IMG/VR virus record: IMGVR_UViG_3300020043_002100
Location: 1-55,556 of that record
DNA length: 55,556 nt
Direction: 5' to 3' (one strand)
Source of the DNA: a virus
Lineage: Duplodnaviria > Caudoviricetes
Every line of letters begins with the position of its first letter. Within the stretch, counting starts at the first letter, position 1. Below are positions 12,399 through 44,123 of this stretch, piece after piece. The notes below the pieces were generated by a model. That model searched no databases. It had not been told where the DNA came from and saw nothing but the letters and a program-made list of their open reading frames with translations. Position numbers and translations under genes: made by a program.

Positions 12399-14648
12399 GT
12401 GAGCAATGAACTGGCGCTGATCCGTACGCTACAACAAAAAGACTTCTACGATACACACAAAGGCATTCGTTGCCCCGACACACTGTTTAGCAAAGACATT
12501 CGTAAGATTAAGCAGACGCTAGACTACGCAATGAAGACGTTTGAACGTGACGTTACTGTAGCTGAACTTGAGGCGCTATTCTTTGCTCACAACAGTAGCC
12601 TCACCACTGCTACACGATTGGTATATCTTGATCTGTTTTCTAAGCTCAAGAAAGAGCATCCGATGCACGGACAGATCGCAGAAGAAGTTATGTCTAGACT
12701 GTTTCAACAGGTAGTTGGTGAACAGGTTGCATCTATTGGCTTCGATTATGTGAATGGCACAGAGACTAGCCTAGAGCCTCTGCGTCAACTCATTGACTTC
12801 TACGGTGACGACTTCCTGCCAGACATTAAGATTGATTGGGAAGACATGACTATTGATCACCTACTTAAGATGAATGGCCTTGAAGCACAGTGGAAGTTTA
12901 ATATTCCGTCTCTGCGTAGGCGTATTGAGGGTGTTAATGGTGGGCATCTAGTGATGTGCGGTGCTCGTCCTAATGTCGGAAAGTGTCTGCGTAAAGGTAC
13001 TAAAGTTATTATGGCAGATACTACTCTTAAAAAGGTAGAAGACCTCGTTGTAGGAGATATTTTGCATGGGGTAGGTTCATCCAAAGTAGCGGTTACGGCT
13101 CTTGGTAATGGCGTAGAAGAGCATTATAGAATTACTCTACGGGATGGAAGCTTCTTTGAGTGTAATGCTTCTCATATCCTTAGTCTTAAGCGCAGCAAAG
13201 AAGAAGGTAAACATAAGCACGGAGATATCCTAAATGTATCCGTATCCGAATATCTGCAGTGGCCACCTAGCAGAAAGACTCGCTACTCTGCATGGAGACA
13301 ACCTACTGCAGGTACAGAGCAGAAGCTTCCTATGCACCCTTATCTACTTGGTGCATGGTTAGGAGACGGTACCTCTTCAAAGGCGCAGTACACTATCGCA
13401 GAGAAGGAGCTAGCTACAGTAATAGACACTCTGGTACAAAACAACTATAGTAACTTACACCTAAAGGATGCAGAGTATGATAAGCTTGCATGGGATGTAG
13501 TAGGAAAGGGTACTAAATGTGACAGATTTAGCAATAGAAATGGCTTTGTTGAAGCGCTTCGTAGTATGAATGTTATAGATAATAAGCACATCCCAGAACA
13601 ATACTTCGCAGCTACCTTTGACCAGCGTGTTCAGCTTCTGTGTGGTCTACTAGACACAGATGGATACTATAAGAATGGTATCTATGAAATAACGCAGAAG
13701 AATGAAACACTAGCGACTGGTATAATTAGACTGGCGCATTCACTAGGCATGGCAGCTTCTATTAAAATCAGCAATAAAGCTTCTCAAAACGGTACTTGGG
13801 GTGTATACCAACGTATGCGTATTAGCCCCGGAAAAGTAGAAGTTCCGTGTGTACTGACACGTAAGCGTCATGTCCCAAACGCTAAAACTAGGGACTCCTC
13901 AATGCAGTGTTTTACTGTAAAGGCTGTTGGTAAGCAGGAATATTACGGATTTACGTTGGATGGAAACAACCTGTTTATGGTAGAAAATAACATTGTAACC
14001 CATAACACAAGCTTCCACGCTTCACTTATTGCTGCTGCTGGTGGCTTTGCACATCAAGGAGCTAAATGCTTTGTGTTGTGTAACGAAGAAGCTGCACACC
14101 GTGTTGGTGCTAGATATCTTACTGCTGCATCCAACATGACTATGGAAGAAATCAAAGAGAACCCTGCACTAGCAGCATCACGTTATGCCAAGATCAAAGA
14201 CAATGTGCGACTAAAAGATTGCACGGGTCGTGACTTGTCTTGGGTTGAATCTCTGGTTAAGACTGAACGTCCTGACATTCTTGTGCTAGATATGGGTGAC
14301 AAATTTGCAGCACGTAGCAGCGACAAGTCTGATGTGTACTTGAAAGATGCAGCTATCTATGCTAGAAACATTGGCAAGGAGTATGGCTGTGCTATCTTCT
14401 GGATGAGTCAGCTTAGTGCAGATGCGGAAGGCAAAGTCATGGTCAACATGTCTATGATGGAAGGATCAAAGACAGGTAAAGCTGCCGAGTCTGACTTGAT
14501 GCTACTGCTTAGCAAGAACCAAGTAGTTGAAGGCTCAGAAGATGAAGACACGCAGCGTCACATCAACATTGCAAAGAACAAGCTTAGCGGATGGCACGGC
14601 ATTGTACACTGTGAGCTAGACGGAGCACGAGCAATTTATCAAGCATAA
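12399..14648 (+). CDS. SF4/DnaB-like replicative helicase containing an intein
   Basis: Walker A GARPNVGK|T split by intein; ILVLD, MSQLS, IAKNK motifs; mature protein about 408 aa. Confidence 0.93.
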   Translation: MSNELALIRTLQQKDFYDTHKGIRCPDTLFSKDIRKIKQTLDYAMKTFERDVTVAELEALFFAHNSSLTTATRLVYLDLFSKLKKEHPMHGQIAEEVMSRLFQQVVGEQVASIGFDYVNGTETSLEPLRQLIDFYGDDFLPDIKIDWEDMTIDHLLKMNGLEAQWKFNIPSLRRRIEGVNGGHLVMCGARPNVGKCLRKGTKVIMADTTLKKVEDLVVGDILHGVGSSKVAVTALGNGVEEHYRITLRDGSFFECNASHILSLKRSKEEGKHKHGDILNVSVSEYLQWPPSRKTRYSAWRQPTAGTEQKLPMHPYLLGAWLGDGTSSKAQYTIAEKELATVIDTLVQNNYSNLHLKDAEYDKLAWDVVGKGTKCDRFSNRNGFVEALRSMNVIDNKHIPEQYFAATFDQRVQLLCGLLDTDGYYKNGIYEITQKNETLATGIIRLAHSLGMAASIKISNKASQNGTWGVYQRMRISPGKVEVPCVLTRKRHVPNAKTRDSSMQCFTVKAVGKQEYYGFTLDGNNLFMVENNIVTHNTSFHASLIAAAGGFAHQGAKCFVLCNEEAAHRVGARYLTAASNMTMEEIKENPALAASRYAKIKDNVRLKDCTGRDLSWVESLVKTERPDILVLDMGDKFAARSSDKSDVYLKDAAIYARNIGKEYGCAIFWMSQLSADAEGKVMVNMSMMEGSKTGKAAESDLMLLLSKNQVVEGSEDEDTQRHINIAKNKLSGWHGIVHCELDGARAIYQA
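12984..14006 (+). mobile_element. Intein (341 aa) with LAGLIDADG endonuclease in helicase P-loop
   Basis: Starts CLRKGTKV, ends IVTHN|T; LLGAWLGDG and LLCGLLDTDG blocks. Confidence 0.95.
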
Positions 14649-14858: not shown

Positions 14859-15042
14859 GAAGAGGATGAAGATTATGAAGCCACGCTATGAAGACCCTAA
14901 GTGGGCAGTAGTAGTTTATGCACCTGATTGGGAAGATGATCTTGCTGTAGAAACACCCAATGCAGAGTTTAACCATTACATTAGCGGTAAAGCTTTGTAT
15001 GAGTGGCTCAAAGATATCTACGAGGAAAAGCAGAAGGAGTAA
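14848..15042 (+). CDS. Hypothetical protein
   Basis: 64 aa ORF; exact start uncertain. Confidence 0.6.
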   Translation: MSIKKRMKIMKPRYEDPKWAVVVYAPDWEDDLAVETPNAEFNHYISGKALYEWLKDIYEEKQKE

Positions 15043-15044
15043 CA

Positions 15045-18000
15045 ATGACTGAGTATATTCTAGACGTTGAGAATAGTACCACTACACACCACGACAAGCT
15101 GCACCTTGATCCATTTGAAGCAGCTAACACTCTGACTATGGTTGGTATGCAACGTGTAGATGATGCTAGGAAGTTGATGCTTCCATTTGACCACGAAGAA
15201 GCACAAGACACCACAGGTGCTAACCACAAGCGTATTCAAGCTGCACTAGATAAGTGTACACTACTAATTGGTCACAACCTTAACCATGACTTGATGTGGC
15301 TGTGGGAAAGTGGCTTCAAGTATGATGGCCCTGTGTATGACACAATGCTTGGTGAATATCTGCTGCTACGTGGCTTAGACGAACCGCTGTCACTTGAAGC
15401 TTGTGCTATTAGACGTAAGCTACCTGTGCAGAAACAAGATACACTTAAGGCACACTTCAACTCAGGTGGCACCACTAGAAACATGCCACTAACAGAGCTT
15501 ACAGAGTACCTTAGCTTTGACCTTGGCACCACTAGGGAGCTATACCTAGCGCAGCTAAAAGACTACAACAGAGAAGACTCCAAATCACTTATACCAGTGC
15601 GTACTACAACTATGCAAACATGTGTTGTGTTGACACGAATGTATTGTAACGGTTTTGCAGTTGATCGTGAAGCATTGGCAGAAGTTAAGCTTGAGTTTGA
15701 GACAGAGCTAGCACAGATAGAAGAACGTCTGTATAAGCAAGTGCGGATACTTATGGGAGACACTCCTGTTAACCTCAACAGTCCAGAACAAATGTCTCAA
15801 GTTGTGTTTAGTTGTGCATTAAATAACAAGAAGGAGTGGGTGCCACTATTTGAGCACACTAAGACAGATGCTGAGTTTAAGGCTGCAGTTAAAGCTAACA
15901 CAAAGCCTCTGTTTAAGACTGTGGCATATCAGTGTCCTGTGTGTGAGGGCAGGAAGTATGTACACAAGATTAAAGCTAATGGGCAACCATATGCTAAACC
16001 CAATAAGTGCAAAGAGTGTGATGCCAATGGCTTCTTGCTTCGTAACACAAAAGAGTTGGCTGGGCTTCGCTTCTCAGCACCAAACAAAGATTGGGTTTCA
16101 GCTAACGGCTTCTCCACAGCTAAAGATAATCTGTCTACACTAATCGTTGTGGCTAAGCAAAACAAGATGGATGAAGCGGAACAGTTTCTGCTTGATCTGC
16201 AGCGCATGAGTGCTGTGTCTAGCTATCTCTCTAGCTTCGTAGGTGGCATTGAAGCTTACACCAAAGCTGATGGGCTACTACACGTAGGTCTTACACAACA
16301 CATTACTGCAACGGGTCGCTTTAGTGGCCGTAACCCTTAACAATATCAGGGGTTAATAAACTCTGTGAACTCAGGGGAAGCCTAGAACAGGTAATCCTGA
16401 GCCAAGCTTTAGCAGTATACTGCTTTAGAAGGTGCAACGACTATCCAGCAATGGAGTACACTCAAGTGAGTGGAAGCGCAGAGTATCGTGTGTAACATCA
16501 CGGTAATGATATAGTCTCCTCTACATAGGGATATGTAGCAGCTAAGTAGCGGGCTAGAGTTAACGACTCTAGTTGAAGATAAAAGAATATGCAGAACATG
16601 CCACGAGGAGGTACATTTCCAGTCAAGAAAGCGTTTAAGTCGCGCTGGGCTGGTGGTAAAGTTATGGAAGCTGACTTTGCACAGCTAGAGTTTCGTGTTG
16701 CTGCTTATTTGGCACAAGACGAATTGGCTATGGAAGAAGTGCGTACAGGCTTCGACGTTCACAGTTACACAGCAAAGGTTATCACAGATGCAGGAGAAGA
16801 CACTACACGACAAAACGCTAAAGCCCACTGTGTAACTATGGATGCAGAGGCACTAACTAATCGTGGTTGGAAAAAGTACCATGAGCTTAGTGTTGGTGAC
16901 TTGGTGTTGACGTATAACCAAGCTAAAGATGAAAACGAGTGGAAGCCTATTCTGGAGCTTGCACACTTCAATGATGAGGAGGTATGGACATATGGACACG
17001 CACACTGGAAAGTAACAACTACTCCTAATCATAGGTGGTACGGAAAGCGACGCACTGGTAGGGGCGCTAAGCGGTACTTTATAGATGAGGTGTTTACAGC
17101 AGATGCTATCACTACGGAGCATTCAATTACCTGTGCAGCACCTTGCTACTACGAAGGCACACTTCCACTTACAGCTAAAGAAGCTGCTATTCTTGGGTGG
17201 GTACTTTCTGATGGTACTCATAGATGGAGCAAACTTAGTGGCGCTACTTCACAAGGCAGTGACGGTCGTAGGCAAGGTTGCAGCGCATCTATTCTGCAGA
17301 AGAAGCAAAGGTATGTAGATGAACTTAATGTGCTACTTGAAGGTTACTACACAAAGATTAACCTAAGAGAAGACGGATGCTACGAGTGGATGCTTAAAGC
17401 AGAAGCTTTCCGTGATATCTGGAAGAAGGCACAACTTGACACAGAAGAGCCTGACTACGTGAATACGGTTATCAATATGTCTGTTGCAGCTAGAGAAGCT
17501 TTCCTTGACGCTTTCATTAAAGCAGAAGGACACAAGCGAGAACAGGGTCAGTGGCGCATATCGCAAAACCAAGGACCAGAAGCAGAAGCTATTCGTGTAG
17601 CTGCTACATTGTGTGGTTATGATACTCGTGTGTCTACTCGTATTAACTACACAGGAAAGCTGCATGATGTTTATACTTTGCGTACACGTAGACACAATGG
17701 CTGCATTAAGTTTGAAGTGTCAGAAAAGCGTGTAGCTGATGTGTGGTGTCCTCGTACAGAGAATGGTACGTGGGTTATGCGACAAGGCAAAGTCGTAACT
17801 ATTACCGGAAATACGTTCGCACCTCTGTATGGCGCTACGGGCCACGGTAGAACGGCTGCTCAAGCTGCTTACTACCACCACTTCATTGAGAAATACGTTG
17901 GCATTGCTGCGTGGCATAAGAAACTTGGTGATGAAGCTGTTAGGTTTGAAAAGATCACCATTCCAAGTGGTAGACAATATGCTTTCCCCAACACGGTACG

Positions 18001-18340
18001 GCGTAAGAATGGCAGCGTAACAAACTTCACTAGGATCAAGAATTATGGGGTACAAGGATTTGCTACTGGTGATATTGTACCTGCTGTACTTGTAGAAATG
18101 GCTCGAAGACTAAAAGAAGGAAACTACAAATCTTTGATTGTTAACACAGTACACGACTCTATTGTGTTTGACGTTCATCCCGATGAAGTAGAACTTATGA
18201 TTTCCTTCATTGATGATATCAACAATAGCCTAAACGACATCATCTACAAAGCTTATGGTGTGGTATTCAATGTGCCGCTTCTACTTGAAGCTAAGATAGG
18301 TGACAACTGGCTTAACCAGAAAGACGTTAAGAAAATGTGA
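15045..18340 (+). CDS. polA: DNA polymerase A (exons 15045-16337 and 16586-18340; contains an intein and a DnaJ-like Zn finger)
   Basis: Exo I LDVE, GHNL..D, YDTM; spliced TGRFSGRNP|NMQNMP; motif A DFAQLEFR; motif B RQNAKAH|TFAPLYG; motif C VHDS; mature protein about 687 aa. Confidence 0.93.
16338..16585 (+). ncRNA. Group I intron (248 nt, no ORF) in polA
   Basis: 5' site after CCU with P1 AACCCU/GGGGUU; P3 ACUCUGU/GCAGAGU; P4 CUCAGG/CCUGAG; P7 GACUA/UAGUC; terminal G at 16585; removal restores frame and PNxQNxP. Confidence 0.93.
16829..17812 (+). mobile_element. Intein (328 aa) in PolA motif B
   Basis: Starts CVTMDAEALT, ends TITGN|T; ILGWVLSDG and FLDAFIKAEG LAGLIDADG blocks; DVWCP block F. 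Confidence 0.93.
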
Positions 18341-26010: not shown

Positions 26011-26092
26011 GCTGGTGTCGCATAGCGGCGATTGCACTGCTCTTGTAAGGCAGCATAACACACCGTGAGTTCGAGTCTCACCATCAGCACCA
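26011..26092 (+). tRNA. tRNA-Thr(UGU)
   Basis: Acceptor GCTGGTG/CATCAGC-A-CCA; anticodon stem CTGCT/GGCAG with loop CTTGTAA; T arm GTGAG-TTCGAGT-CTCAC. Confidence 0.88.
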
Positions 26093-26093
26093 C

Positions 26094-26186
26094 GTTGGTT
26101 TAGTGTAGTGGTAACACGGCAATCTCTTGTGTCAGCAAGCTTGACCAAAACTGCAGTCCTTGGTTCGATTCCAAGTTCCTTCGCCA
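26094..26186 (+). pseudogene. tRNA-Trp-like RNA with 19-nt anticodon-loop insertion and mismatched acceptor stem
   Basis: Perfect D arm (GTGT/ACAC) and T arm (CTTGG-TTCGATT-CCAAG), G73-CCA; removing 26127-26145 restores loop CTCCAAA. Confidence 0.65.
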
Positions 26187-40649: not shown

Positions 40650-40661
40650 AAAGTACGCTTA

Positions 40662-42934
40662 TCAGGCGAGGTTGTACTTACCAGTTACGATAGCTTCACC
40701 ACGGAGGATTTTGCGCCCGTAGAGGTGCATACCACGAACAATGTCAGCAAACGAGTCAGGATCACGATACTTTTCAGTTTTGTTGATCTGTTCTGCAGTT
40801 GCAACAGCCGAGTCGTGACCTGCAACGATAACACCGTAGTTGGTGTTCTGGTTAGCAACGCCAGTCGTACCCGGACCAGTACCAGCTTTCGGCAGGTTGT
40901 TCGAAATGTAAACACGGAAGCCGTGGAAGTTGTTCAGAACCAGACCATTACGAAGAGCACCCGAATCACCGTAGTCAGCATTCAGGAAACGCGAATCTTC
41001 ATCACGCAGCACTTCCATCATAACGGGGTCAATAACCAGCCAACGGCCAGCAGTATCCACGTTCTGTTGGTCCAGAAGACGAGCCATACGCGAAACCAGC
41101 ATAGCAGGCGACACATATTCGGTAGGCAGTGCAGTAGCGCCCGGAAGACGAGCAGCAACCGGAATGGAGTGATCACCCGCCGAAGCAGTAGTGATGTTGC
41201 CAAACGAACCCTTTTTCAGCTTCATCGAAGCCAGCAGTTCATCCGTACCAGCACCCGTAGTAGCCACAGTGCCGTTAGTGATATCGTTTACAGTGTCAGC
41301 ATTGACGTGCAGTGCCGATTGCTTGTAGCCCGACAGGTAGCCGAGAACTTCTTGGTCATACTGGTCAGCCAGACGATAAGCAGCGCGATTAGTAGCGAGG
41401 TCCATGAAGTTTACATGCGAGTGTGCTTCTTCAATGTCGTCAACTTTACCTTATCTTCAATGTAGTGCGTTACTTCTACATCCGTTCCTTTAAGAACTGC
41501 TGCAACTTTCATTGCAGAGGAGACTATATCATCACCCTATTGCTAGGGGTTGGGCGCTTCCGCTCACTTGAGCGTATGGACTTCATCTTCTGTTCTAGAA
41601 GGTGTGTCCTAGTCGTTGAACCTTCAAAAGCATTCCTGCTTAAGCTTGGCTGCTGATTATCCTCGACTTTACGTTAGGACTTCCCAGCAATTCACCCAAT
41701 TCTTTAGGTGGGATCACTCCCAAATGCGTCTAGAATTAGTTAAACGCGAAGTAGTTTGACTTATCAATGACCAGCGAGAAGTCTTCATCGTTCAGGTCTT
41801 GGGCTTGAATTTGCGTCCCACGTGCGTACGAGGACACCGAAATTTCCAGATGTTAACGCTTGGGAGTTTAACCCTTGCTTCTATAGGTTTGTTTCCCTAT
41901 AGGTCAGACTATATCTTCACCCATATCTAGGGTGTCCTGCGCTCGTGGAGTACAAATACCTACATGTTCAATCTTGTAGTGCATACAAGGAACAATGTAA
42001 GGAGAAACAACTGACACAAAGACTTTAGAGTCTGCTGTGTTGAAGCGTAGAGAATACTTGTCGCTGCGTTTGTCTACGTCAAATTTAGCATCAATGCCAT
42101 ACTTGCTCATAAACCAATTCTTAAGTATTTCAGCTTCTTCTTTTGAACAATATGTTGCTATACGAGTCATACACCCCGTTGGTTTTCCAGTAAGCCTACT
42201 CTTGCATACTGTGCCACTTCCGTCATCCATGTACCACAAAGCTAGACTATGATCAGTAAGATAACTGAGTAGCTTCTCTGTGTAAACTTTCTTTCCTTCT
42301 GGGTACAGCACTCTGTGCATTTGCCGGAAGTAAGCGTAATTTTTGTACATCTGATGATTTGTGTACGTTTTACCTGTCGTCTTATTGGTGCTCTGGTACG
42401 TATACACGCTAGGCTCTTTTCCACCTATTGTGCTGTGTAACAGCTTAGCTTTATGCTTGAGATAGTCAAGTTGCGCTGGGCCGTGTCCGATAACCATACG
42501 AGCAGTGGTTTTAGCTTGCGTCTTTTGAAGATAGATGCCGCCATCACCGATAGCAAGGCCATACAAGAGGCCTCTTTTAGTCTTGTCCAAGTTGTTTCCT
42601 TTCGTTAGCTACTAGAGCCACTACTTCTAAGTATTTATATTCTAGTCGTTGAACCTTCCACTTTCGTGGCTTGGCTGCTGATTCCCATCTCAGGGTTCCA
42701 GCAATTCACAGGAAGTTTATTCGTAGCTTACGCTGCGAAGGCCCAAAATTTAGGCTCTTTGATGATACGAACAGTGTCGCCTTGCGAAGAGATTTCACCA
42801 AAGTAATCACTGTTGGTGATAGCTTGTGCAACCGTCTTTTTGCGGAATGCAAGTTGAACTTTTTTCGAGTAAATTACCGAGCTAAAGTTACCATTAGCCA
42901 GATTGCCCCAACCGGGTGCAGCTTGAAATGCCAT
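40662..42934 (-). CDS. Major capsid protein, three exons (42934-42752, 41846-41743, 41448-40662), 357 aa
   Basis: Spliced junctions read GDTVRIIKEP|EISVSSYARG and SNYFAF|KVDDIEEAHS; exons total 1074 nt in frame; C-terminal DSFADIVRGMHLYGRKILR. Confidence 0.92.
41449..41742 (-). ncRNA. Group I intron 2 of capsid gene (294 nt, no ORF)
   Basis: P1 GCGUU|UA with UAGACGC (U-G at the splice site); P3 UUGGGU/GCCCAA; P7 GACUA/UAGUC; terminal G at 41449. Confidence 0.9.
41847..42751 (-). ncRNA. Group I intron 1 of capsid gene (905 nt) carrying a homing endonuclease ORF
   Basis: 5' site after CCU pairing with GGGC; P3 UCCUGU/GCAGGA; P4-P5 UUGCUG...CAGCAG; P7 GACUA/UAGUC; terminal G at 41847. Confidence 0.9.
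41904..42590 (-). CDS. Intron-encoded double-motif LAGLIDADG homing endonuclease
   Basis: LLYGLAIGDGGI and LALWYMDDGSG motifs (I-SceI-like family); TTG start after AAAGGA; stop overlaps P7'. Confidence 0.88.
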   Translation of the reverse strand: MDKTKRGLLYGLAIGDGGIYLQKTQAKTTARMVIGHGPAQLDYLKHKAKLLHSTIGGKEPSVYTYQSTNKTTGKTYTNHQMYKNYAYFRQMHRVLYPEGKKVYTEKLLSYLTDHSLALWYMDDGSGTVCKSRLTGKPTGCMTRIATYCSKEEAEILKNWFMSKYGIDAKFDVDKRSDKYSLRFNTADSKVFVSVVSPYIVPCMHYKIEHVGICTPRAQDTLDMGEDIV

Positions 42935-43175
42935 TGTAGTTTCTCCTATAGATGGCTATATTTGTCATGTTGCCACGGTGCTCTCATAGCACTCTTTGTA
43001 GCAATGAACGAATATCACATCAGTTAAGAGGCCATTACGTTATGGGTGTCGCCTAGAGGATCAGTCTATTTGAGGCCAACGGTATTGGGTAGTCTCACAT
43101 ACGTTATTCGTTGAAAAGTGGTAACTACTGAGGTTGGCTTTCGCGGCTCAATAGTTACTTGTTGTTGTGCGTGTA

Positions 43176-43203
43176 GTTATACTTATCTAAATCTTAATGT
43201 CAA
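43176..43203 (-). promoter_or_regulatory. Sigma70-type promoter upstream of capsid gene
   Basis: TTGACA-16-TATAAC(TAC) on minus strand. Confidence 0.7.
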
Positions 43204-43229
43204 GCATTATTTTAGCTTAAGTATAATTT

Positions 43230-44123
43230 TTATCGTGCTCCACCAGAAAGATCATACACAAAGTTACCTGTGCGGATAGCTTCCATGATTTCATCTGCTT
43301 TAGCTTCGTACTGTTTCATCGACATTTTGTTAACATCGCTTTCACGAATCTTAGGACCATTACCTTCAACATCAACATCGACACGACCACGCTTAGGCAT
43401 AATTGCAGTAGCAGCATCTTTAGCTTTCTGCTTCATGCCTTTGGAGTCGAGGCCATTCTTAAGTTTATACAAGTCAAGAACTTCAATAACAGCTTGTGCA
43501 TCATCTTCATTCTCGTAAATTGCAGCTTGTGTTCGTTTCGACTGTTTAGCTACCCACTCATGGAACTCGTCTGTTTCACGAATCTCTTCAAAGTCTGCAT
43601 GTTCTTTGCGAATAGCAGCTTCAACTTTCTTACGTTCAACTTCTGCAGTCATTTCATCAATGCGACTAAGCCGCTCTTCTGCACCAGCAAAACGCTCCGT
43701 AGCTTTCTTGTCAGCAATAGCTTCAACAATAGCAGCAACGTCAGGGTACTTCTGCATCCAAGCTAGAACATCTTCTTCACTCTTAGGCGGAACCAGAGAA
43801 GTGTTGCTGTTCTCACTTTGTGCCTCAAGCTGCTTGATCTTTTCAGTCAAGGTGTTAAGATGAACACGAAGATCACCATACCGCTTTTTGTAGGTCTTTT
43901 CTTCTGCAGTTAGAGTTTCCTCTTTTTCCTCTACAGGAGCTTCAACAACCTTTTGTGGTGAGATATCTTCTTCTTGCTTTTCTTCATCTTCACCACGCAT
44001 CTGTGCTTCAAGTTGACGCAGTTCTTCTTCGTCGCGTTCAATTCGTTTACTAAGAGAAGTTGCTGATCCTGTGTTAACGTAACCAGCAGTCTTAGTTTGT
44101 TCAATAGTGCCGATAGCGGCCAT
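43230..44123 (-). CDS. Capsid scaffolding protein
   Basis: Acidic coiled coil, KKRYGDLR, F.EWV; position upstream of MCP; start ATG 44123 after GGAG. Confidence 0.75.
   Translation of the reverse strand: MAAIGTIEQTKTAGYVNTGSATSLSKRIERDEEELRQLEAQMRGEDEEKQEEDISPQKVVEAPVEEKEETLTAEEKTYKKRYGDLRVHLNTLTEKIKQLEAQSENSNTSLVPPKSEEDVLAWMQKYPDVAAIVEAIADKKATERFAGAEERLSRIDEMTAEVERKKVEAAIRKEHADFEEIRETDEFHEWVAKQSKRTQAAIYENEDDAQAVIEVLDLYKLKNGLDSKGMKQKAKDAATAIMPKRGRVDVDVEGNGPKIRESDVNKMSMKQYEAKADEIMEAIRTGNFVYDLSGGAR

Follow-up and report, generated by a model that had tools for sequence, protein, structure and literature searches.

Reviews place the open reading frames (ORFs) of group I introns in peripheral loops generally (PMC3984707), and the examples tabulated in PMC3073962 lie in the paired regions P1, P6a and P8. 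We analyzed the complete virus record IMGVR_UViG_3300020043_002100 (Duplodnaviria; Caudoviricetes; 55,556 bp, hereafter the window), in which the major capsid protein (MCP) gene is interrupted by a group I intron, intron 1, that carries a gene for a LAGLIDADG_2 protein. As judged from covariation, this ORF is lodged between P7 and the 3' strand of P3 (P3'), where it appears to be looped out of a covarying 12-bp helix at the P7.1/P7.2 position, that is, out of a stem after P7 as ORFs elsewhere loop out of P6, P8 or P9. Intron 1 is very probably a mobile phage intron of IA2-like type, with its homing endonuclease gene (HEG) in the hairpin after P7, a C-terminal tail gained passively by creep into the ribozyme core, and a mechanism that combines homing with competition between translation and splicing.

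Among the closest described systems is T4 td with I-TevI, a phage group I intron which resembles intron 1 in its P7.1/P7.2-type periphery and in an ORF whose 3' end lies in the core, and in which ribosome transit harms splicing and translation is restrained (PMC3073962). I-TevI is a GIY-YIG enzyme encoded in the P6 loop with a 20-nt overlap (P6a, P7) (PMC3073962), whereas the window enzyme is a LAGLIDADG protein encoded after P7 with a 66-nt overlap. The LAGLIDADG ORFs in the large subunit ribosomal DNA introns of Synechococcus sp. C9 and S. lividus read through P7, P3 and P8, as in the type of overlap found here (PMC1995217, PMC3073962), the L1917 ORF starting in P6 and stopping in P9 (PMC1995217). 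These introns differ from intron 1 in residing in bacterial rRNA, in being IC1-like or having a short P5, and in encoding single-motif enzymes from ORFs that start in P6 or P8, whereas intron 1 lies in a phage protein-coding gene and encodes a double-motif enzyme of the I-SceI type from an ORF that starts after P7. In the DNA polymerase intron of cyanophage Pf-WMP3, a phage IA2 intron, the ORF of I-PfoP3I contributes to P7.1 and P7.2; unlike the window ORF, it encodes an HNH enzyme, starts in P6a and crosses P6, P7, P7.1 and P7.2, so that it is not inserted in the arm and ends short of P3' and P8 (PMC3428280). Capsid genes split by LAGLIDADG-bearing group I introns, as here, are described for mycobacteriophage LittleE (PMC3706429), the gene of which differs from that of the window in being I-CreI-like and on the opposite strand, and for crAss-like phages, in their MCP introns (PMC7886860), and a report mentioning both HMO-2011 and an intron concerns a polymerase gene (PMC10580990). 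Both an ORF overlapping the ribozyme core, including LAGLIDADG frames through P7, P3 and P8, and phage capsid introns with LAGLIDADG genes are, therefore, already in print.

The intron-bearing genome is that of an HMO-2011/CRP-type podovirus, and its closest coat proteins are those of the Roseobacter phages CRP-13, CRP-1 and CRP-9 (79-80% identity, exon 3 only compared) and of Puniceispirillum phage HMO-2011 (69%). The split capsid gene comprises the following parts.

42752-42934, minus strand: MCP exon 1, 61 codons, 183 nt, ending in ...KEP; from the ORF list and the alignment with the CRP-13 coat protein.
41847-42751, minus strand: group I intron 1, 905 nt; from an Rfam match (E=1.6e-08), covariation and a 905-nt net loss in metagenome contigs.
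41743-41846, minus strand: MCP exon 2, 104 nt; from the CRP-13 coat alignment.
41449-41742, minus strand: group I intron 2, 294 nt, phase 2, without an ORF, starting 104 nt downstream of intron 1.
40662-41448, minus strand: MCP exon 3, 787 nt; from a protein search and the CRP-13 coat alignment.

The joined exons (183+104+787) amount to 1074 nt, the length of the uninterrupted CRP-13 coat gene, with which they gave a gapless 357-residue alignment, and because of this gapless match of the spliced product, 42751-41847 and 41742-41449 were assigned to introns 1 and 2, respectively. The first base of intron 1 (42751) follows ...AAA GAG CCU and its terminal G (41847) precedes GAA AUU UCG, the predicted ligated junction of exons 1 and 2 being ...AAAGAGCCU|GAAAUUUCG. 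The span 41847-42751, given by an earlier reading of the sequence alone (the original prediction), was thereby borne out exactly, by the frame, the CRP-13 alignment and the bases at the splice edges. For intron 2, the Rfam match (89.7 bits) spans 41752-41500 only, and the frame and the CRP-13 alignment place the 3' splice site at 41449, some 50 nt beyond the end of that match.

From its 5' end to its 3' end, intron 1 is made up of the following elements.

42741-42755, minus strand: P1, exon GCCU (42755-42752) with guide GGGC (42744-42741); 4 pairs, 100% paired, one compensatory change of G-C to A-U.
42728-42730, minus strand: in-frame UAA in the P2 loop, ending the exon-1 frame (ORF 42934-42728) 8 codons into the intron.
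42707-42713, minus strand: P3 5' strand UCCUGUG, with 7 of 7 pairs to 41941-41935.
42653-42703, minus strand: P4-P5-P6-P6a domain, from the Rfam alignment; helices 4-6 are 98-100% paired.
42643-42647, minus strand: P7 5' strand GACUA, pairing with 41911-41907 and invariant in six same-site introns.
42631-42642, minus strand: 5' strand (X) of the closing helix, the putative P7.1 equivalent, directly after P7; from covariation.
42607-42619, minus strand: small hairpin GGCU-CUAGU-AGCU within the arm, with GUA before and GAAAGG after it; 95.8% paired, one compensatory pair.
42597-42602, minus strand: Shine-Dalgarno-like AAAGGA, 6 nt before the TTG and conserved in the six same-site introns.
41904-42590, minus strand: LAGLIDADG_2 ORF, from TTG at 42590 to TGA at 41906-41904; 228 amino acids and stop.
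41907-41972, minus strand: part encoding the C-terminal tail, residues 207-228, beyond Y205/K206, with a drop in model confidence; RNA-encoded.
41948-41959, minus strand: 3' strand (X') of the closing helix, covarying with 42642-42631.
41942-41947, minus strand: CACGAG, which joins X' to P3'; relatives and one class of ORF-less introns have CA(C/A)GAG here.
41935-41941, minus strand: P3', CGCAGGA, downstream of the ORF body; 7 pairs, 100% paired, 2 compensatory, in agreement with a two-strand energy fold.
41918-41934, minus strand: P8 hairpin CACCC-UAGAUAU-GGGUG (strands 41934-41930 and 41922-41918); 100% paired, never varying, homologous to P8 of intron 2.
41907-41917, minus strand: J8/7 AAGAUA (41917-41912) and P7' UAGUC (41911-41907); from the sequence and the Rfam alignment.
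41881-41902, minus strand: P9 hairpin, 88.9% paired and predicted by the energy fold.

The structure was evaluated by covariation in an alignment (A2) of six same-site introns from IMG/VR against 500 shuffles and slid controls. Over the proposed structure, 85.7% of 440 cells were paired and 17 pairs had changed on both sides, a score reached by none of the 500 shuffles, with the slid controls 34-46% paired; the P7 helix was offset by one column in this count, and its 40% figure there is void. The closing helix (42642-42631 with 41959-41948) comprises 12 pairs, 94.4% paired and 6 of them changed on both sides, and it is also present, with quite different sequences, in more distant loci; a hairpin resembling GGCU-CUAGU-AGCU was likewise found by eye in relatives. 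A two-strand energy fold of the intron halves recovered P3, P4-P6, P8 and P9. Among the features that characterize RF00028 (Intron_gpI), intron 1 has a P1 with U.G at the 5' splice site (conserved in all six same-site introns), the terminal G, covarying P3-P8 and P4-P6 domains, and a frame that is restored on removal. The intron 2 paralogue has the order ...AGCGCCCAAC-CCCUAGCAAUAGGG-UGAUGAUAUAGUC and intron 1, after its ORF, ...AGCGCAGGAC-ACCCUAGAUAUGGGUG-AAGAUAUAGUC, both being P3'-P8-J8/7-P7'.

The ORF starts 52 nt after P7 (GACUA, 42647-42643), and the start codons of the six same-site introns (ATG, GTG or TTG) stand at the same column. To extend the comparison, we used a family set consisting of the window and 50 loci fetched with the ORF protein (L numbers). 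Of the window and the 50 loci, 39 combine a P7-type motif, at most 130 nt ahead of the ORF, with a J8/7-P7' motif close to its stop. Pairing downstream of the ORF with the locus's own P3 strand (at least 6 of 7) was found in the window and 25 loci and in 4 more, making the window and 29 of the 50; these counts are the union of two anchored searches, which mis-picked at L023/L029 and L027/L028 (the first) and at L006, L018, L022, L030 and L034 (the second). The P3' of the family is the 7-mer after CA(C/A)GAG, 620-672 nt from the ORF start, and the 14 distinct P3 strands are all compensated in it. The first anchored search gave a mean of 6.35/7 over all 20 unique combinations, including those mis-picked, compared with 4.8/7 for a cross-locus control; an unanchored search for the best 7-mer was uninformative, G-U pairs yielding 5-6/7 by chance. 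The original prediction that the gene lies between P7 and P3', in the P7.1/P7.2 region, thus held, the P3' after the ORF being fully paired, compensatory and in step with 14 P3 strands, and so did its claim that the last codons run through P3', P8, J8/7 and P7', each of which was located on the minus strand within the end of the ORF. The secondary-structure modelling that it had proposed supported it by covariation and by the energy fold of P3, P4-P6, P8 and P9; the closing helix had the support of covariation but not of the energy fold, as described below.

The ORF product matched Pfam LAGLIDADG_2 (PF03161) with 94.2 bits against a cut-off of 25 (E=1.1e-26, residues 8-191), and the proposed assignment to LAGLIDADG enzymes was in this way confirmed by a hidden Markov model and by the fold matches below. 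It has two motifs, LLYGLAIGDGG (residues 8-18, with D16) and LALWYMDDG (116-124, with D123); D16 and D123, which we take by analogy with I-SceI to be the catalytic residues, are invariant in 23 aligned sequences, where no position beyond Y205 and K206 is conserved throughout. The nearest solved relatives are I-WcaI and I-SceI (E from 6.7e-11, for I-WcaI, to 1.2e-08), and the match ends at residue 207-209 on a shared ...PYIxPxMxYK, a few residues before those proteins end. An AF2 model built from the 23 sequences had a mean predicted local distance difference test (pLDDT) score of 92.4, falling to 62 for residues 211-220 and 47 for residues 221-228 (below 50 at 219-226), and Foldseek matched it to 6x1j (I-WcaI) with E=1.5e-14 and a template modelling (TM) score of 0.74, and to I-SceI with a TM score of 0.72. 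The modelled product has a monomeric double-motif LAGLIDADG_2 fold of the I-SceI type, built as a double alpha-beta-beta-alpha-beta-beta-alpha arrangement, the same fold as in I-SceI and I-WcaI (PDB 1r7m, 6x1j) at 21-24% identity, those enzymes being without the RNA-encoded tail. Among the six same-site copies, nonsynonymous divergence (dN) of the ORF body was 0.17-0.39, synonymous divergence (dS) was saturated in 14 of 15 pairs, and the third codon position was invariant in 10 of 207 codons; the ORF bodies at this capsid site thus look like working genes under protein selection.

The end of the ORF behaves differently from the body. The predicted protein fold ends near residue 206-212, and the tail codons (PRAQDTLDMGEDIV*) cover the 3' strand of the closing helix, CACGAG, P3', P8, J8/7 and P7', with the stop UGA (41906-41904) directly after P7', resulting in a 66-nt overlap with the ribozyme (about 22 codons). 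Third positions were invariant in 13 of 21 tail codons, compared with the 10 of 207 in the body, and the dN/dS of the tail was 0.14-2.07 in the 12 of 15 computable pairs, with a tail dS of 0.07-0.56 among the five closest copies against a saturated dS in the body. In one same-site copy, L009 (L009:3100-3184), the same RNA elements are read in a frame that differs from that of the other five, which is direct evidence, at the level of sequence comparison, that the amino-acid sequence of the tail is not what selection keeps. Where the frame stops varies among relatives: in L036 and L039 it stops 3 residues after YK, before P3', and in the others in J8/7-P7' or beyond P9, with tails of 3 to about 90 residues and the end of the stop codon ranging from +64 nt past the start of J8/7 to about 30 nt before it. 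Many stops cluster within the invariant AUAUAGUCUGA, because a UAG or UGA occurs there in two of the three frames. In six more distant relatives (L018, L022, L024, L026, L031 and L034), the frame passes P3' and runs through a P8 enlarged by about 100-250 nt that encodes CxxC...CxxC, ending in or after J8/7; no Pfam family was found for the Cys-rich tails in the three examined (L022, L026 and L031). The core-creep hypothesis was put forward by Edgell, Chalamcharla and Belfort in 2011 (PMC3073962), and the body in a peripheral loop, the variable extension to the next in-frame stop and the RNA-constrained overlap codons seen here correspond to it. The pattern thus indicates that the last approximately 22 codons evolve as RNA and not as protein, which fits core creep.

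To examine the presence and absence of the introns, contigs from public metagenome runs were aligned to 40650-42950 at 85% likeness or more. The runs were of DNA, except for X17, which was of uncertain kind (its RNA label being guessed), so that its exon 1-exon 2 contig was not counted as splicing. At the intron 1 site, a net loss of 905 nt was found in X17 with the exact joint 41846|42752, in X6 with the joint 41840|42752 and 6 letters replaced (depth 66.7), and in X8 and X17 with the joint 41822|42753 and 25 letters replaced; at the intron 2 site, X8 and X17 had the joint 41447|41746, with 4 letters replaced and a net loss of 294 nt. Run X4 had one 5886-nt contig with both introns and 126 letters differing, and in X6 the form without intron 1 coexisted with the form bearing it (a 997-nt contig, depth 4.1). 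Introns 1 and 2 are, therefore, optional at exact junctions among relatives.

Several observations weigh against the structure and history proposed above. The contig joints belong to relatives at 85-98% identity and not to the window genome, and they record introns that are optional at exact sites, not splicing. P7 and P8 do not vary in the six same-site introns and so carry no statistical weight, and the 12-bp closing helix, for which the evidence is covariation, was not recovered by the two-strand energy fold of the intron halves. The Rfam match of intron 1 scored 40.6 bits (39.3 in another scan; E=1.6e-08), below the 50-bit gathering score, which can be put down to the 690 nt of inserted ORF and to the misplacement of P3'. 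In that alignment, the P3 5' strand (42713-42707) is paired with AACGAAAGGAAA just before the ORF, and this upstream pairing is possible, as standard pairs, in 85.7% of cells in the six closest introns and could exist as an alternative fold. If this alignment, which is cmscan's own, were correct, P3' would lie upstream of the ORF in a segment that also holds the Shine-Dalgarno sequence, and the ORF would occupy the P8 loop, a classic site. The original prediction had named such an upstream P3' as an alternative to be checked, and it exists on paper; its pairing shows no covariation, however, being matched by 340 of 500 shuffles, and the P8 stem required around the ORF is marked mostly as non-standard pairs, whereas the P3' after the ORF pairs with 14 distinct P3 strands among relatives, and immediately beyond it stands a clean P8 hairpin whose homologue is found in intron 2. 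We, therefore, regard an upstream P3' as hardly credible. The UUCCU of the P3 5' strand (42713-42709) is complementary to the Shine-Dalgarno AGGAA (42601-42596) of the endonuclease gene, which explains the misalignment by Rfam, and this pairing, which is without covariation, could in principle form as a transient alternative fold.

Other roles for the ORF product were also considered. LAGLIDADG maturases are known, including a Thermotoga neapolitana case (PMC3984707); bI3 and I-AniI were among the structure matches of the ORF product, and folding with 690 nt inserted next to the G-binding site might require assistance, so that the product could be mainly or also a maturase of its own intron, with its site beside the core reflecting RNA binding. 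This is unlikely, given that all 23 sequences keep both catalytic aspartates and that intron presence varies at exact junctions among related genomes, as active homing predicts. The decay of HEGs is common, the start codon here is TTG, and intron 2 and the polymerase intron of the same genome have no ORF; it is nevertheless very unlikely that the gene is a decaying, non-working passenger in an intron kept only by splicing, because the frame is intact at 228 amino acids with its catalytic residues kept, dS is saturated at a dN of 0.17-0.39 among six intact same-site copies, and the AF2 model is confident throughout the fold. The tail itself could be functional in the enzyme, perhaps as an extension that contacts DNA, as the overlapping codons of T4 I-TevI are part of its DNA-binding domain (PMC3073962); four close relatives (L005-L008) end in ...GEDIV like the window, and the CxxC...CxxC pattern recurs in the extended tails of six more distant ones. 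The dN/dS of the tail at low dS, which places the constraint on the RNA, the different frame of L009 on the same RNA, the stops of L036 and L039, the low pLDDT of residues 219-226 and the ends of I-SceI and I-WcaI where homology ends all speak against a working tail, and we consider one quite improbable. Homing by a working endonuclease with a passive tail remains the reading that we prefer.

According to this homing mechanism, the enzyme would cut intron-less capsid alleles near KEP|EIS, as expected from homing introns, and repair would copy the intron in. The closing helix would bring P7 and P3' together, so that the ribozyme could still fold, and the tail would be a by-product of core creep, fixed by RNA structure, with the frame running to the first in-frame stop. 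Ribosomes arriving from exon 1 would meet the P2-loop UAA (42730-42728) and halt, and a ribosome finishing the ORF would have to open the closing helix, P3, P8 and P7, half of the catalytic core. Because the last 66 nt lie in the core, translation of the HEG would be expected to compete with splicing of the same transcript, and ribosome passage causes the splicing defect seen with I-TevI (PMC3073962, there from Gibb and Edgell 2010). By this analogy, competition between ribosomes and splicing in intron 1 is a reasonable proposal. The weak TTG start would be expected to hold translation low, weak initiation being listed among the strategies that restrain HEG translation (PMC3073962). No hairpin at the ribosome-binding site and no internal late promoter of the I-TevI kind were found in the intron of the window, and no usable internal promoter for the ORF was found in 41400-43250, where one sigma-70-like site lies inside the ORF against 3.2 expected; the promoter type of the phage itself may differ.

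We also considered a broader possibility, in which the LAGLIDADG arm after P7 would be an old and widespread partnership of intron and endonuclease in aquatic phage capsid genes with a switch between translation and splicing. In such a partnership, each transcript may give either endonuclease or spliced capsid mRNA and never both, the frame may have crept stepwise through the 3' half of the ribozyme, with a Cys4 module recruited in the P8 loop in some lineages, and pairing of the Shine-Dalgarno/start region (42599-42591) with the VVS codons (42011-42003) may shut translation off after the full intron is transcribed. By eye, this pairing is kept with compensatory changes in the window, L005, L006, L008 and L009, and is absent from L007; in the alignment of six introns it was 75.9% paired with one compensatory pair. 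RNAduplex gave no sign that the 3' part of the ORF masks the Shine-Dalgarno sequence in the window (z=0.03, 20 of 40 shuffles as good). A masking helix formed by the 3' part of the ORF is thus unsupported by the sequence comparison, although not disproved, and the broader possibility taken as a whole is doubtful.

Regarding distribution, homologous capsid genes harbour at least 29 of the 50 loci. The insertions fall at one of two positions, 18 codons from each other: behind residue 43 (...NSD|YFGE) in L011-L034 and behind residue 61 (...KEP|EIS) in L005-L010. Near-identical DNA was not found in phage records, and a distant DNA search returned short pieces of the intron core only, in 7 records. 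In Salmonella phage PVP-SE1 (GU070616, L055, record positions 13474-14340), gene 17, which encodes the LAGLIDADG protein, neighbours the DNA polymerase gene and is contained in an Rfam-positive group I intron (54.4 bits). The polymerase coding sequence ends inside this intron, for which the record has no annotation, showing instead individual genes and a promoter. As in the window, the LAGLIDADG_2 ORF is flanked by P7 and P3': the P7 motif (CAGAGACUA) stands 42 nt upstream of the ATG, and P3' (AAAAGAG), which complements the CUCUUUU before J3/4, is followed by P8 and J8/7. PVP-SE1 differs from the window in its host gene, the polymerase, in an ORF that stops about 50 nt before P3' without overlapping the core, and in a hairpin with a CAAGU loop that follows the ORF, whereas the arm hairpin of the window precedes it. 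The most distant relatives (L044, L046, L049 and L051-L053) have frames that remain open over about 860-2500 nt upstream and no intron motifs, and these copies look like intein-borne genes, not intron ORFs.

Subgroup IA2 is recognized by P7.1 and P7.2 hairpins linked by G-U-A between P7 and P3' (PMC3428280). In this interval, the second and third introns of the window show P7.1-AUA/GUA-P7.2 (AUA in intron 2), and intron 1 has one long-range helix and an inner hairpin preceded by GUA, with CACGAG before P3'; the stem name P7.1 for its closing helix was assigned by position. Among ORF-less phage introns fetched by pattern (at least 116 loci, with at least 114 unique P7-to-J8/7 segments), two layouts were distinguished. 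The first, P7.1-GUA-P7.2 (CAAGUG loop)-GAAG-P3', passed a strict test in at least 39 segments and includes introns 2 and 3 of the window; the second, a single hairpin followed by CA(C/A)GAG-P3', passed in at least 20, the CA(C/A)GAG tag being present in at least about 50 ORF-less segments by a hand count that includes a few false cases. At least 55 segments passed neither strict test. By its sequence pattern, intron 1 is assigned to the second layout (single hairpin and CACGAG), and the ORF lies distally in that hairpin. Both layouts (GUA-P7.2-GAAG and one hairpin with CA(C/A)GAG) share identical P7 and J8/7 motifs, in loci from L058 upward. No ORF-less twin of intron 1 at KEP|EIS was found among the at least 116 pattern-matched loci listed, for which exact P7 and J8/7 motifs were required, and only L062 among them lies in a homologous capsid gene, at a different site (near residue 55-57).

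The original prediction had called a LAGLIDADG gene at this position in a phage intron an unusual combination, and this stands by comparison with classic compilations (Table 1 of PMC1995217 has no LAGLIDADG among phage introns) but not by comparison with nature, where the window, 29 of the 50 relatives and PVP-SE1 share the arrangement. In the literature searched, from which subscription journals and supplements were largely absent so that a prior description is possible, we found no paper that assigns an ORF to P7.1/P7.2 or to the interval from P7 to P3' and, with the same coverage, no description of a LAGLIDADG intron family in HMO-2011-type capsid genes. The placement after P7 is rarely described, yet common in IMG/VR, and it adds the P7.1/P7.2 arm to the known HEG sites in group I ribozymes. 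The family also provides a natural series for testing core creep, with ORFs that stop before P3' (L036, L039 and PVP-SE1), in J8/7-P7' (the window) or beyond P9, or that run through a Cys-rich P8. Because the host is the single major capsid gene, in which incomplete splicing would be costly, the balance between endonuclease translation and splicing is experimentally meaningful. For annotation, it is of importance that this phage group has split capsid and polymerase genes and that Rfam under-scores and misaligns ORF-bearing introns of this type.

Elsewhere in the window, a third ORF-less group I intron (16294-16538, plus strand, 81.5 bits) interrupts the family A DNA polymerase gene (15003-18340), and the polymerase ORFs 15003-16340 and 16589-18340 both have DNA_pol_A (Pfam) matches. 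In ORF 16589-18340, two DNA_pol_A stretches surround a long unmatched insert that starts with ...HC and ends with ...GN|T; this insert may be an intein, and no Pfam Hint match was found in it at E<0.01. Two adjoining tRNA genes are present at 26011-26183 on the plus strand (Rfam 52.2 and 30.4 bits).

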